A model generated the notes under the pieces. That model worked only from the letters and a program-made list of their open reading frames with translations, did not search any database and was not told where the DNA came from. This document shows, in pieces, positions 6,374 to 63,364 of a stretch of DNA of 64,000 nucleotides. Made by a program: the position numbers and the translations under genes. This stretch comes from Tequatrovirus LF73P3. Every line of letters starts with the position of its first letter. Within the stretch, counting starts at the first letter, position 1. The stretch is from the sequence record OZ035756.1. One strand, 5' to 3'.

Positions 6374-6592
6374 TCATTTTACACCATTCCAAATTGTTTC
6401 AACCACAGATTTTAAGCCATTTTGATGAATGTCCATTCCGACAACTGCCATCAAATAAATTCCAACTACAACTGAACCTAAGGCAAAAATCAGCATGAAA
6501 ATGAATAAAGCCGGAAAAATATTATCGAAAAACCATTCAATAAATGTAAAAGCACTGCGTTTACGCTTCATATTTTCCTCACATAAATCCAA
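6374..6592 (-). CDS. hypothetical membrane protein (72 aa)
   Basis: two predicted hydrophobic helices. Confidence 0.4.
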   Translation of the reverse strand: MDLCEENMKRKRSAFTFIEWFFDNIFPALFIFMLIFALGSVVVGIYLMAVVGMDIHQNGLKSVVETIWNGVK

Positions 6593-6692
6593 AGTAAGCG
6601 TTTAATACATCAATCATTAAAACGATTGGGAATATACTCAAAACTACTAGTATTATAACTACATTCCATATAGCTTTAACAATCTTTTTCAT
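6579..6692 (-). CDS. small membrane peptide (37 aa; track ORF trimmed to first ATG after promoter)
   Basis: ATG at 6692 preceded by SD GGAGG within the conserved cassette leader; track start lies upstream of the promoter. Confidence 0.4.
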   Translation of the reverse strand: MKKIVKAIWNVVIILVVLSIFPIVLMIDVLNAYFGFM

Positions 6693-6717
6693 TTTCTGTT
6701 CCTCCGTAGTTGATAGG

Positions 6718-6750
6718 ATAATAATACCACAGAGGAACAGTCTTGTAAAC
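6718..6750 (-). promoter_or_regulatory. Early sigma70-type promoter (GTTTAC -35, TATTAT -10); near-identical copy of the cassette at 58000..58029
   Basis: minus-strand GTTTACaagactgttcctctgtggTATTATTAT. Confidence 0.55.
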
Positions 6751-7447: not shown

Positions 7448-7478
7448 AGTACCACAGTCCTTGTGGTATGTAAACTGT
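7448..7478 (-). promoter_or_regulatory. Early sigma70-type promoter cassette (GTTTAC, spacer with CCACA...TGTGG inverted repeat, TGGTACTAT)
   Basis: minus-strand GTTTACataccacaaggactgtggTACTATACaactatcaactgata. Confidence 0.6.
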
Positions 7479-17094: not shown

Positions 17095-17121
17095 TTTATT
17101 ATCCTCAGTAGCTATGGTGTT

Positions 17122-17151
17122 ATAATACCACAACTAACCGAGGAAGTAAAC
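17122..17151 (-). promoter_or_regulatory. Early promoter (GTTTAC, TGGTATTAT)
   Basis: minus-strand GTTTACttcctcggttagttgtggTATTATAA. Confidence 0.55.
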
Positions 17152-21427: not shown

Positions 21428-22047
21428 TCAACTACCTCAATATCATACACTTTAAATGTTCCAAATGAATCGTGTAATTTTTCTTTTGAAATAGAAGTTA
21501 TTTTATACTTTCCAATTGGAATCATCCATTCTTGTTCACGCACAATCATCATTAAGTTATCAGTACGTTCTGAATCTAATCCATCAGTATCTTCATATGT
21601 ATACTTAAACTCAGTATTAGGAGAAGAAAGTATAATATCGCTGATATGGTCAGAATAATTAAAAGCTTTATCAGTTTTTAAGCGAAATATTATTTCAGTG
21701 GAATATTCAACATAAGAAAAACCACATGCTGTGTGCAAACTAGTAGTAAATGAATCTACTCTGTTCGTTGAAAACACTTCTCCGATTTGTAAATCTTTAA
21801 TGAGTTCTTTTGTCGATTTTGATATACCACGATATAGCTGATAAGGCGATTTAGTTAAATGCTTTTTAGCGATTTTATTCAACTGCTGATGAAGAGCTTC
21901 ATTCTTTTTGGCTTCCATACATTGCCAAAGAATTGACTGTTCAAAGTCAGTAAATTTTTCACAGACCTTTTTATACATATCATATTGAAAATCGACACTT
22001 TCAGCTTTTATAGATAACTGTTCAACATCTGCAAGATTAATAATCAT
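21424..22047 (-). CDS. modB: ModB ADP-ribosyltransferase
   Basis: 207 aa; R-S-E motifs (YRG, STN, EQEWMIP). Confidence 0.8.
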   Translation of the reverse strand: MIINLADVEQLSIKAESVDFQYDMYKKVCEKFTDFEQSILWQCMEAKKNEALHQQLNKIAKKHLTKSPYQLYRGISKSTKELIKDLQIGEVFSTNRVDSFTTSLHTACGFSYVEYSTEIIFRLKTDKAFNYSDHISDIILSSPNTEFKYTYEDTDGLDSERTDNLMMIVREQEWMIPIGKYKITSISKEKLHDSFGTFKVYDIEVVE

Positions 22048-22073
22048 GATAGCCTCCGTATACTTCAGAAACT

Positions 22074-22103
22074 ATCATATCATTGTTAGGAAGGAAAGTA
22101 AAC
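22074..22103 (-). promoter_or_regulatory. Early promoter (GTTTAC, TGATATGAT)
   Basis: minus-strand aaaaGTTGTTTACtttccttcctaacaatgaTATGAT. Confidence 0.5.
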
Positions 22104-34087: not shown

Positions 34088-34118
34088 ATAGTACCATGGA
34101 AGAACAGGGATGTAAACA
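34088..34118 (-). promoter_or_regulatory. Early promoter cassette (GTTTAC, TGGTACTAT)
   Basis: minus-strand GTTTACatccctgttcttccatggTACTATACaactatcaactgatacgg. Confidence 0.6.
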
Positions 34119-37379: not shown

Positions 37380-37943
37380 TTACCATTCCAATGCTAGTTT
37401 TTTGAGTTGTTTCTGTTCTTTTACGTTCTTAGTCACTTCTTTCAAAAAATCATCCGTGACTAAACCTTTTAGTTCTTTTAATACTAAAGGAAGTTTTCCA
37501 TTTTTAGTAAGAATTGATTTATAGTTAATTGCATCATTTGTATTAACTTGATACCGCTTAGCAAGTAACTTAATAATCAATACTTCGGTAGAATCTTCGA
37601 CCAGTTTTGCCCATTTACCATATCTTTTACCCCGAGGAACAGCAGCCATCAGATAATTAAAATGGGCTTCATCGCTTAAACCTGATCCAATTAAATTCAT
37701 AGCATATACAGCTGGCATGCATTCAGGAAATTGTGATAATGCATTCTCAACCATGTATTTTGAATAATCTTTTTGAGCAATAGAGCATTTAGTTTTATTA
37801 TTAATAGCTCCAATTATTTCAAAAAATTCATTTTCAGCTTTTTCCTTAAAAGAATCAGCAGCAGATTGGACAGCTGTCCAATCTTTTGAATACCAAGCAA
37901 CTTGATGCTCGTTTAATTGAATATCATCTTCAAATAAGCTCAT
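37380..37943 (-). CDS. 62: gp62 clamp-loader small subunit
   Basis: 187 aa, position and length as T4 gp62. Confidence 0.85.
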
Positions 37944-56986: not shown

Positions 56987-57388
56987 TCACTCAATTTTAC
57001 TGATTATGCGGAATAAGATTGAACAGACTATATAAGTACCACACACAGATTGAACTAATACCATTCCAAAGAACCAAACAATATTATCAAACCATGTCTG
57101 TTTTACGTCGAAAGGACGTAAACTTACAGTAATATTATCGCCTTTTTCTATTGATGAATACATCTCTGGGGAAATATATTCACTAAATCTATAACCGTCT
57201 TTGAGTTCATATACAGCAATAAACGATAAACTAGACCCTTTTCCTTGAGTTCCTGTAAGGGTATTAACTACAGTAACATCATAATCTTTATAATGCATAT
57301 AATCATTAATTGCGTAATAACCATATGCAACTACTACACATAAACAACATATCAATAAATTCAATCTTTTAATTATCAACTGTTTCAT
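56987..57388 (-). CDS. hypothetical membrane protein (133 aa)
   Basis: N-terminal signal anchor and C-terminal TM segment. Confidence 0.45.
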   Translation of the reverse strand: MKQLIIKRLNLLICCLCVVVAYGYYAINDYMHYKDYDVTVVNTLTGTQGKGSSLSFIAVYELKDGYRFSEYISPEMYSSIEKGDNITVSLRPFDVKQTWFDNIVWFFGMVLVQSVCGTYIVCSILFRIISKIE

Positions 57389-57443
57389 AATAATCTCAAT
57401 TAAAAGGGCTTAGAACCATTATACCATCCTTGGTATAAAGCGG

Positions 57444-57971
57444 TTATGCGAGTACCGTCTTTAACCGTTCTTCAAACTTCCGAAGAGTATTTTGGCGTTC
57501 AGCTCTTTGCTTTTTGTAAGTTTCAATACGCTCTGAAATGAGAGAATATCGTTCATTTATTGATTCTTTCATAAAATCAGGAATTTCACGAGAAGCTTTA
57601 ATCTCGTCAAATTTATCAATAACAGCTTGCTCTTCAGCAATTAAGTTATCATACATTAAAATATCTTTCTTGATGAACTCAATATCTTCTTGAGTTACAC
57701 GAGATAATTTAGATGCTTTATCCTTTTTGTACTGTTCATTAGTATCACGAGACCAGTGTAATGTACGATTTTTATTCGTATTTTTGTAAATTTCTACAAT
57801 ACCGATCTCATCAATAATAACGATCCAATTCCAACGGGATTTGTAAATTTGTCCTCCATCAACAGTGATTTCACCTCCGATTGAGATGTCGTTAAAGAAC
57901 TTGCTTTGTGCTTCAGATTTAAATTTACCATCGTTGTAATTTACCAAGTTGAAAATATCTTTAGCGTTCAT
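57444..57971 (-). CDS. hypothetical protein with C-terminal coiled coil (175 aa)
   Basis: ATG within cassette leader, SD GGAGG. Confidence 0.5.
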   Translation of the reverse strand: MNAKDIFNLVNYNDGKFKSEAQSKFFNDISIGGEITVDGGQIYKSRWNWIVIIDEIGIVEIYKNTNKNRTLHWSRDTNEQYKKDKASKLSRVTQEDIEFIKKDILMYDNLIAEEQAVIDKFDEIKASREIPDFMKESINERYSLISERIETYKKQRAERQNTLRKFEERLKTVLA

Positions 57972-57999
57972 TTTCTGTTCCTCCGTAGTTGATAGTTGT

Positions 58000-58029
58000 A
58001 TAGTACCACAGAGGAACAGTCTTGTAAAC
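58000..58029 (-). promoter_or_regulatory. Early promoter cassette (GTTTAC, TGGTACTAT)
   Basis: minus-strand GTTTACaagactgttcctctgtggTACTATACaactatcaactacggaggaacagaaaATG. Confidence 0.6.
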
Positions 58030-58031
58030 CA

Positions 58032-58346
58032 CTAAAAGAAACTTCTTTCACAATTTTTTCCACTGAACCAGGCGCTCACTGCTTTCTTAGTCTCAGGAGC
58101 AGTGTTATCCATAAACCATTCAAAGGCAGCCTTTTTATGATTCTGGAGGGCTTCTCGGGCTTTAATCTGCTCACGGTCTATTAACACTAACATATGAGCC
58201 TTTCTTGTCACCATGGGCTTCTTATGATTTTTTGAATACTCCCAGTCATTTGTCCATCGCATTGTCGTTGCGAACTGAAATACTGCTTCTTTAATTTTAG
58301 TTTCGTAAATTTCACGAGCCTTTGAGTATAACATCACTACCTCCAT
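58032..58346 (-). CDS. hypothetical protein (100-104 aa)
   Basis: two candidate ATG starts, the inner one with SD GGAGG. Confidence 0.45.
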   Translation of the reverse strand: MEVVMLYSKAREIYETKIKEAVFQFATTMRWTNDWEYSKNHKKPMVTRKAHMLVLIDREQIKAREALQNHKKAAFEWFMDNTAPETKKAVSAWFSGKNCERSFF

Positions 58347-58436
58347 TCACCAGTTTAATTCTAGTCATCTTTTTGATGGCAGTCCATATAATCTATTTCT
58401 GAACTGCCTTTTTGTCTTAGAAGGCCTCTTATGAAT

Positions 58437-59405
58437 TTATTTCAGAAGAGTAACCTCAGCGATTTCTTGCCAACCGTTTTTGTCGGTCATAATAAAGTCA
58501 GCAAGATAAAGAGCAGTACGCAGTGAAACATTGCGTAAACGATTAACATTAACTTTCATCCATGATAATGCTTTATAAGTTTCTTCATCAGAAAGACCGC
58601 GCTTTTGCATCATGTCAGTTGAAAGAATAACATCTTCAACCCTGACCATAATTTCTTCATTAGTGTGAACACCCAAATCCAAATAAACCGAGCGGGACAC
58701 TAATGCTTGTAAATGTGGAGCAAGTTTAGTACCACGGTCTAATTCGCGGTCAATGTCAACGTTTGTGATAAAAACAATCGTTCCTTTAAATTCAAACTCA
58801 CGGTCAATGCCTTTTTCTTCTAAGTAAGAAGATGCAGTGCTCCAGCAGACTTTACGGGTCTCTCCAGTGTCCAGAGCAGCTTTTAGAAGATTAAGAATGT
58901 CCATATCAGAGAAAACATCCACATCATCAATCAAAAGGACAGAATTCTCTTCACGATTATTCCAAAGCTGCTCATAAAGACCAATACCAGAGATTTTACC
59001 ATTAATGCTTTTATATTCAATGTATCCGTTATCATTTGCTTTATTTAAAGCTTTATCTAAAGAATACGTTTTACCAATACCTGCTGCGCCAGAGATAATT
59101 AATGAACGAATATTTCCATTAATAATACCATTCGTCATCATTCCCATAACATTAAATCTTTTATTAATGCGGGTTTTCATATCTTCATATGATTCTTTAA
59201 CTTCTTCAACTTTTACACCATCATATGAAATATCTGATTTGTAAACCCAAACACCGCGACGTTTACCGTCAATTTCAACAAAAACTTTACCATCTCCTTG
59301 TGCATCTACCGGAGCATTATCTGGGAACCATTCGCCTAAGAGCTCAAAAGTTCCAGAGATTTCTTTACCGAAGTAGATACCCTTATTGATAGTTACAGTT
59401 TTCAT
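58437..59405 (-). CDS. AAA+-type P-loop ATPase (about 322 aa)
   Basis: Walker A GAAGIGKT, Walker B LLIDDVD, sensor-like FITNVD; ATG at 59405 with SD GGAG. Confidence 0.6.
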   Translation of the reverse strand: MKTVTINKGIYFGKEISGTFELLGEWFPDNAPVDAQGDGKVFVEIDGKRRGVWVYKSDISYDGVKVEEVKESYEDMKTRINKRFNVMGMMTNGIINGNIRSLIISGAAGIGKTYSLDKALNKANDNGYIEYKSINGKISGIGLYEQLWNNREENSVLLIDDVDVFSDMDILNLLKAALDTGETRKVCWSTASSYLEEKGIDREFEFKGTIVFITNVDIDRELDRGTKLAPHLQALVSRSVYLDLGVHTNEEIMVRVEDVILSTDMMQKRGLSDEETYKALSWMKVNVNRLRNVSLRTALYLADFIMTDKNGWQEIAEVTLLK

Positions 59406-59474
59406 TTTATTCTCCAATTTCACATTTGTTTTGATAGGGTAATAGTATCACACTACTACCCTACTGTAAACAAT

Positions 59475-63334: not shown

Positions 63335-63364
63335 ACTATATCATAACCTTGCCAACTTGTAAAC
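63335..63364 (-). promoter_or_regulatory. Early promoter (GTTTAC, TGATATAGT) for the 63199-60622 operon
   Basis: minus-strand GTTTACaagttggcaaggttatgaTATAGT. Confidence 0.5.

Follow-up and report, generated by a model that had tools for sequence, protein, structure and literature searches.

A T4-type early promoter nested in a predicted Shine-Dalgarno hairpin upstream of nrdC.8 and ndd.4

Why would the spacer of a phage early promoter carry the exact complement of the ribosome-binding sequence of the gene that the promoter drives? The nrdC.8 gene of Tequatrovirus LF73P3 raises this question. We analyzed a stretch of 64,000 nucleotides from its sequence record OZ035756.1 (the window; positions refer to it unless another genome is named), in which nrdC.10, nrdC.9, nrdC.8 and nrdC.7 follow one another on the minus strand in a region that is 98% identical, by sequence comparison, to many Tequatrovirus (T4-like) genomes. 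Positions 57961-58030(-) comprise the early promoter of nrdC.8 together with its leader, and a near-identical second copy at 6690-6750(-), 51 kb away, drives ndd.4 within the denB-ndd block. The reading that we favor, and hold to be reasonably probable on the predicted folds, is that the promoter is nested in a hairpin that would mask the Shine-Dalgarno sequence (SD), such that each of the two genes would be translated only from its own immediate-early promoter.

The cassette and its fold

The minus strand from 58029 to 57969 reads GTTTACAAGACTGTTCCTCTGTGGTACTATACAACTATCAACTACGGAGGAACAGAAAATG, which is laid out 5' to 3' as GTTTAC, AAGA, CTGTTCCTCTGTGG, TACTAT, ACAACTATCA, ACTACGGAGGAACAG, AAA and ATG. 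The promoter elements of the two copies are a -35 hexamer TTTACA, a 17-nt spacer and a TG-extended -10 hexamer (TACTAT for nrdC.8, TATTAT for ndd.4), with an AT-rich stretch on their 5' side (AAAAAAGTT or GAAAGAAGTTTCTTTTAG). An earlier note made from the letters of this DNA had likewise read a promoter here, and the annotation of relatives agrees with it: in SA20RB and SA21RB the two sites carry the label of T4-type early promoters, GTTTAC(N14)gtggTAttaT. The note had further claimed that a 9-nt segment of the spacer is perfectly complementary to a segment covering the SD. This is exact in the sequence, the 9-mer CTGTTCCTC (58019..58011) being the reverse complement of GAGGAACAG (57983..57975), which spans the GGAGG SD and lies 3 nt 5' of the ATG at 57971. 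The layout GGAGG-N7-ATG precedes both nrdC.8 and ndd.4.

The 24-mer GTTTAC...GTGG has two exact occurrences in the window against 0.00 expected, and the 9-mer CTGTTCCTC has five on both strands against 0.32 expected; the one at 37634 lies inside an unrelated coding sequence and was set aside as a chance match. A chance origin of the cassette is ruled out by the count of the 24-mer and by the fact that no shuffled sequence folds as well (see below). The arrangement is duplicated, as had been claimed, but it is not identical: the copy at 6750..6690 differs from that of nrdC.8 at five bases, all of them between the -10 hexamer and +8 and all in the loop of the hairpin. The duplication is that of one mobile cassette which was copied, and not two independent inventions.

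Folding in silico returned a hairpin over the SD, and the complementarity turned out to be longer than the 9 bp first proposed. The inner stem has 15 bp (CUGUUCCUCUGUGGU / ACUACGGAGGAACAG, with two G-U pairs), joins 58019..58005 to 57989..57975 around a 15-nt loop, and reaches -22.1 kcal/mol for the hairpin alone as compared to -11.0 for the 9 bp alone. Taken by themselves, the two cassette copies have z-scores of -5.3 and -5.2 relative to shuffled sequences. Read-through RNA has a minimum free energy (MFE) of -32.7 kcal/mol at nrdC.8 (z -5.1) and of -24.2 kcal/mol at ndd.4 (z -3.5), which none of the shuffles equals. In both copies the SD pairs with bases that precede the transcription start with a probability of 1.00, a value reached by none of 200 shuffles of the upstream part. 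RNA from the predicted +1 onward lacks structure (-1.3 and -3.2 kcal/mol, z near 0), with an SD paired probability of 0.18-0.27. The folding check that had been suggested with the original claim thus came out in its favor, an SD-sequestering hairpin forming in read-through RNA and none in promoter-started RNA. The absence of the 5' arm from promoter-started transcripts was also correctly anticipated: since the arm lies upstream of the -10, ending at its first base, RNA from the gene's own promoter never carries it, whatever the exact start. In the nrdC.8 leader the inner stem is joined by an outer helix, in which the sequence around the nrdC.9 stop codon and the -35 pairs with codons 2-4 and with the UG of the start codon.

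The inner stem begins 12 nt after the stop codon of nrdC.9 and, in the second copy, 17 nt after that of ndd.5, so a terminating ribosome should melt at most the outer helix. A terminator scan found no terminator-like site between the upstream early promoters (59470 and 7474) and either cassette, and read-through is therefore expected. That the hairpin is itself a canonical intrinsic terminator is unlikely, because it has no U-tract (AAAAUG stands directly 3' of the nrdC.8 hairpin) and the terminator scan was empty at the nrdC.8, ndd.4 and motB.2 loci. A plus-strand gene using GAGGAACAG as its SD is likewise unlikely: only a 62-aa open reading frame (ORF) with a TTG start is present, and the region is transcribed leftward throughout. 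A search of Rfam over 57300-58500 gave no match to a known RNA family at E<=1. The features are collected in the table below.

Table. Positions of the features of the two cassettes and of the motB.2 promoter in the window
Feature	Positions	Strand	Remarks
-35 hexamer TTTACA, nrdC.8 early promoter	58023..58028	-	G at 58029 completes the T4 consensus GTTTAC; annotated in SA20RB
5' arm CTGTTCCTCTGTGGT, in the promoter spacer; ends on the first T of the -10	58005..58019	-	Folding
15-nt loop with the remaining -10 (TACTAT, 58005..58000) and the predicted start at ~57993	57990..58004	-	Start placed at the usual 7-nt distance
3' arm ACTACGGAGGAACAG with the GGAGG SD of nrdC.8	57975..57989	-	Folding
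Outer helix, 5' strand TTTTAGTG-G-TTTA; nrdC.9 stop TAG (58034..58032) and part of the -35	58025..58037	-	Read-through MFE
Outer helix, 3' strand TGAACGCTAAAG; UG of the start codon and nrdC.8 codons 2-4	57959..57970	-	P(AUG paired) 0.58
nrdC.8 ORF, 175 aa, function unknown	57444..57971	-	
-35 hexamer TTTACA, ndd.4 early promoter (second copy)	6744..6749	-	
5' arm CTGTTCCTCTGTGGT, second copy	6726..6740	-	Folding
Loop, second copy; -10 TATTAT at 6726..6721, predicted start ~6714; all five differences	6711..6725	-	
3' arm ACTACGGAGGAACAG with the SD of ndd.4	6696..6710	-	Folding
ndd.4 ORF, 37 aa, predicted inner-membrane peptide by relatives' annotation	6579..6692	-	
motB.2 early promoter, between dexA and motB.2	17102..17150	-	-35 17150..17145, -10 17127..17122, ATG 17094

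Conservation and alternative arms in relatives

An 80-nt element containing the cassette is present at a coverage of at least 80% in 655 phage records. When the two loci are pooled, nine distinct Tequatrovirus variants can be told apart. Three substitutions fall inside the stem and all of them preserve pairing (C-G to U-G, U-G to C-G and G-C to G-U), the only broken pairs being the two terminal ones at the base of the stem. Variable columns make up 5 of the 15 in the loop, despite its holding the -10, as compared to 5 of the 30 in the stem. The nrdC.8 copy of T4 itself has a 13-bp stem of -19.4 kcal/mol.

Loop types have been swapped between the loci, L011/L086 carrying an ndd.4-type loop at nrdC.8, or L084 an nrdC.8-type loop at ndd.4, and an AACAG/AACAC polymorphism is common to both loci. 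The swaps and the shared polymorphism are evidence of gene conversion or recombination between copies that lie 51 kb apart.

A third case is the early promoter at 17151, upstream of motB.2, which is unrelated in sequence to the nrdC.8/ndd.4 cassette. Its spacer arm TCCTCGGT-T-AGTTGTGGT (17144..17127) pairs with ACCATAGCTACTGAGGA (17118..17102) and masks the SD GAGGA. In RNA form this is UCCUCGGU-U-AGUUGUGGU / ACCAUAGCUACUGAGGA, a 17-bp hairpin of -23.7 kcal/mol (z -5.4), and in read-through RNA the SD is paired with a probability of 1.00, again reached by none of 200 shuffles. The hairpin is the same in T4, T6 and the window. In the Dhakavirus phages JS10 and AnYang, motB.2 has different arms, UUCUCCUCAUG pairing with CAUGAGGAGAA, and its SD is still masked; the outer helix ACGAUAAA/UUUAUCGU of Tequatrovirus becomes UCGAUAAA/UUUAUCGA in Dhakavirus, a swap of A-U for U-A.

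Outside Tequatrovirus, NrdC.8 was found only in the genera Mosigvirus and Dhakavirus. The Dhakavirus leader of nrdC.8 (IME08 and several IMG/VR contigs) has the spacer AUCUCCAGUAG, whose pairing with CUACUGGAGGU (-17 to -18 kcal/mol) masks the SD via a different sequence and register (P 0.96-0.98); among the variants, one has an A-U to G-U change and another has one mismatch. The outer helix at nrdC.8 offers no covariation test because its sequence is conserved in the other genera. The strongest argument for selected SD pairing comes from nrdC.8 and motB.2, since each of them has arms centered on the SD in each of two genera, and the four arm pairs differ from one another. These comparative data support such selection.

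Two further observations concern relatives of the cassette. At 34088-34117(-), and in L054 (Dhakavirus ESCO10), a spacer CCTGTTCTTCCATGG of the same family as that of nrdC.8 and ndd.4 precedes a different leader (…CTGATACGGATTTGGAGAATGAAATG), and this looks like a recombinant cassette whose complementarity to the SD was lost. In T4 (NC_000866, 166636-166764), the annotated start of ndd.4 is an ATG that arises from a C-to-T change in the 3' arm of the hairpin (CTATGGAGG) and that lacks an SD. The downstream in-frame ATG that follows GGAGG, which is the start in relatives, is more likely, and the annotated protein is probably five codons too long.

Proposed mechanism, known systems and rival explanations

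Hairpins over ribosome sites with a promoter between their arms have been described for T4 e (lysozyme), soc, 49, I-TevI and segB and for mobE of Aeh1; according to the reviews, the genes known to be masked in this way are all late genes with late promoters (PMC3014915, PMC2988022). The likeness to T4 lysozyme drawn in the earlier note carries over as far as the mechanism goes, but the timing differs. As with e, soc, 49 and I-TevI, the SD and/or AUG is sequestered only in transcripts started upstream, here in silico, and RNA from the internal promoter lacks the 5' strand of the helix, here from a predicted start. In contrast to them, the nested promoter is a sigma-70 early one (GTTTAC N14 gtggTAyTAT) and the 5' arm is its own spacer; TATAAATA, the mark of a late promoter, is found between the arms in neither copy. 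With an early promoter in the place of a late one, timing would therefore be inverted, to translation in the immediate-early phase only. The cassette would thus work like the e/soc family but is not a member of it in the strict late-gene sense. The masking principle at sigma-70 early promoters, with the promoter's own spacer as anti-SD and the timing inverted, appears not to have been described in the literature that we searched, which excludes the T4 genome review of Miller et al. 2003.

The endoribonuclease RegB cleaves early SDs at GGAG/U; its substrate must be single-stranded, and secondary structure blocks it (PMC1702504, PMC3014915). In vivo, cleavage is moderate at the GGAG of T4 nrdC.8, and the GGAU of motB.2, one of only two GGAU sites, is also cut (PMC1702504). 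During infection both SDs must therefore occur in an open form, as is expected for promoter-started RNA. The cassettes resemble RegB sites in that early GGAG or GGAU SDs are followed by an A-rich tract. The nrdC.8 sequence GGAGGAACAGA matches the RegB consensus GGAGRAYARAA at 8 of 11 positions. RegB sites are defined as single-stranded 11-mers, whereas the one at nrdC.8 is predicted to be double-stranded in read-through RNA and single-stranded only in promoter-started RNA; sensitivity to RegB would thus depend on the promoter of origin.

The mechanism that we propose builds on the observed sequence and its fold, on where the start site falls between the arms, on conservation and on the alternative arms in other genera. 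The 5' arm is the promoter's own -35/-10 spacer, the loop contains the -10 and the predicted start, and the 3' arm contains the SD of the driven gene. Polymerase arriving from 59470 (nrdC.10/nrdC.9) or from 7474 (the ndd.5 block) would transcribe both arms, and the resulting hairpin of 13-15 bp (about -19 to -22 kcal/mol) would deny the SD to 30S subunits and also, by the published rule, shield GGAG from RegB. A local hairpin of -19 to -22 kcal/mol over an SD is said, after de Smit and van Duin, to reduce initiation by orders of magnitude. RNA begun in the loop at the nested promoter would have an open ribosome site, which could be translated and cleaved by RegB, and would then be inactivated by it. 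Provided that read-through RNA is abundant, that its translation is actually blocked and that masking is the selected function, delayed-early and middle read-through transcripts would contribute nothing, and expression would amount to a short, self-limited early pulse. The cassette would also carry its own translational insulation wherever recombination moves it.

Several observations weigh against this mechanism. The two copies share their ancestry, and the nine Tequatrovirus variants show one-sided changes only, with no double compensatory change among them. The benefit of an early pulse for nrdC.8 and ndd.4, genes of unknown function, is speculative. The moderate cleavage of nrdC.8 by RegB may reflect a protected read-through fraction, or else its imperfect match to the consensus. 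In Mosigvirus, the strong nrdC.8 hairpin (AGGUCUAUGGU/AUUAUAGACCU) has only the -10 inside it; the partner of the SD is a U-rich stretch upstream of the -35 (P 0.90, reached by 9-10 of 200 shuffles), in a G-U-rich helix that is marginally above shuffles. With this helix included, all three genera are predicted to mask the same nrdC.8 SD by three different pairings. Finally, 23 early promoters of the GTTTAC type precede a gene in the window, all on the minus strand, and only three of them (58029, 6750 and 17151) have an SD whose pairing with pre-start sequence is complete and significant (P = 1.00, 0/200), which rules out SD masking as a general property of T4 early promoters. Eight of the 23 (63364, 59471, 58029, 28380, 22103, 17151, 16046 and 6750) have a strong hairpin whose 5' arm lies in the spacer or -10 and whose loop or arm contains the -10. 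At 63364, 59471, 28380 and 16046 the nested hairpin is strong (z -3.6 to -5.6), its 5' arm lies in the spacer and its loop holds the -10; no U-tract comes after any of these four, and their 3' arms stop before the SD (5-6 nt short at 63364 and 28380). Because equally strong nested hairpins miss the SD, the conserved feature could be the promoter hairpin rather than SD masking; and because most of them miss it, SD masking is a special case and not the rule.

The census includes one further arrangement. At 22045-22103(-), the -10 hexamer and discriminator (UAUGAUAGUUUCUG) pair with the SD and AUG (CGGAGGCUAUCAUG) of a 207-aa ORF in a hairpin of -15.5 kcal/mol (z -2.9), which is not significant relative to shuffles (63/200). 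This promoter would be a third way of nesting a promoter in a hairpin of the translation initiation region.

Promoter-linked stem-loops of this kind, whose published status the earlier note had missed, are already in print as PeSLs (promoter-early stem-loops), first in RB49/phi1 and later in PST/T4 and nt-1/KVP40 (Arbiol et al. 2010, PMC2839356; Comeau et al. 2014, PMC4122927). A PeSL comprises an AT-rich region, a sigma-70-like promoter, a stem-loop, an SD and an ATG; PeSLs are repeated in hyperplastic regions, where their recombination reshuffles small ORFs, and one published example is the exchange at ndd.4/ndd.5 between T4 and PST (PMC2839356, PMC4122927). Their authors read the stem-loop as a terminator or attenuator and the cassette as a recombination module (PMC2839356, PMC4122927), and the word "translation" is absent from the 2010 text of Arbiol et al. 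The likeness of our cassette to a PeSL extends to the strong early promoter, which matches the TTTACW N17 TAYWAT of the T4/PST group and has an AT-rich region upstream; to the stable promoter-associated stem-loop (15 bp, -22.1 kcal/mol); to the SD and ATG of a small ORF of unknown function at the 3' end, the ndd and nrdC.x blocks being variable regions of PMC4122927; and to the repeated copies that exchange loop variants. It differs in that its stem-loop extends from the spacer into the SD, lacks a U-tract and is predicted to mask the ribosome site, whereas the PST/T4 stem-loops are placed just upstream of the promoter; its position is closer to that of the RB49 type, between -35 and -10 or overlapping the -10. 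The cassette belongs to the published PeSL class and is not a new class of sequence, and the locus itself has been published.

Could the stem-loop then be a generic PeSL, that is, an attenuator, a terminator or a stabilizer of 3' ends that also offers ~60 bp of homology for recombination, with an incidental overlap of the SD? We consider this unlikely, even though the PeSL papers report terminator-like activity for one RB49 stem-loop and name ndd.4/ndd.5 as a PeSL-mediated exchange (PMC2839356, PMC4122927), the annotators of SA21RB called the ndd.4 hairpin a terminator, most of the nested hairpins at 8 of the 23 early promoters fall short of the SD, and the swapped loops of L011/L086 and L084 show that the copies do recombine. 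However, the hairpins lack a U-tract and the terminator scan was empty at three loci; recombination requires homology and not intramolecular complementarity; and such a role leaves unexplained why spacer and SD pair in two genes in each of two genera by four arm sequences. A PeSL function is moreover compatible with SD masking and does not exclude it, and more generally our preferred reading and its rivals are not fully exclusive of one another.

A second alternative starts from RegB. The primary role of the hairpin might be to protect the GGAG of long polycistronic RNA against RegB and RNase E entry for the benefit of neighboring cistrons, the silence of nrdC.8 and ndd.4 being a side effect. 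It would fit that GGAG/U in early SDs is the target of RegB and that structure stops the enzyme, that nrdC.8 and motB.2 are documented sites (PMC1702504, PMC3014915) and that the SD is fully paired in read-through RNA only. But most RegB-targeted early leaders in the window (of the GGAGAAUAAAAUG type, at 7475, 59471 and others) have no such cover, and nrdC.8 matches the RegB consensus poorly, which makes protection as the primary role quite improbable. Least probable is that the palindrome is a functionless by-product of cassette history that hitch-hikes with a strong promoter: the two copies are indeed one duplicated sequence, and variation within the genus is low and without double compensatory change, but the spacer, normally free to vary, varies less than the loop that holds the -10, every internal substitution in the stem keeps pairing, Dhakavirus has different complementary arms at nrdC.8 and motB.2, and none of 200 shuffles reaches the observed pairing.

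If translation of nrdC.8 and ndd.4 from their own promoters only is true, the principle of a promoter within a ribosome-site hairpin extends in T4 from late to immediate-early genes, with the opposite temporal outcome, and the PeSL stem-loops, so far read only as terminators and recombination sites, gain a translational function. It would also account for the shuffling of small mobile ORF cassettes among transcription units with no expression at the wrong time or level, and it predicts that the sensitivity of an SD to RegB depends on which promoter made the RNA. For synthetic biology, it would offer a compact design in which the spacer of a promoter shields that promoter's own gene from translation of read-through RNA. 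A broader proposal is possible, although we regard it as doubtful: a general, self-insulating early cassette of T-even phages, in which the sigma-70 promoter spacer doubles as an anti-SD and a mobile ORF is translated only from its own promoter in any transcription unit. Combined with the cutting of open RNA by RegB, it would amount to a hard-wired immediate-early pulse, which would mirror the late-gene hairpins and be an overlooked translational function of PeSL stem-loops.

The products and neighbors of the cassettes

For NrdC.8 and Ndd.4, a search of PHROGs returned only families of unknown function and a search of Pfam gave no match. In many GenBank records the genes nrdC.8, nrdC.9 and nrdC.10, at 57444-59423(-) in the window, are called "thioredoxin". 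NrdC.8 is without a Pfam match, as said, and NrdC.9 matches only DUF7203; the name looks like a misannotation that propagated from the neighboring nrdC.

Just 3' of nrdC.8, at 57405-57450(-), a MotA-box-like GCTT and a TATAAT stand at the spacing of a middle promoter. The same segment contains a small hairpin (ATACCAaggaTGGTAT) 5' of nrdC.7, and SA20RB annotates both a middle promoter and a terminator here.

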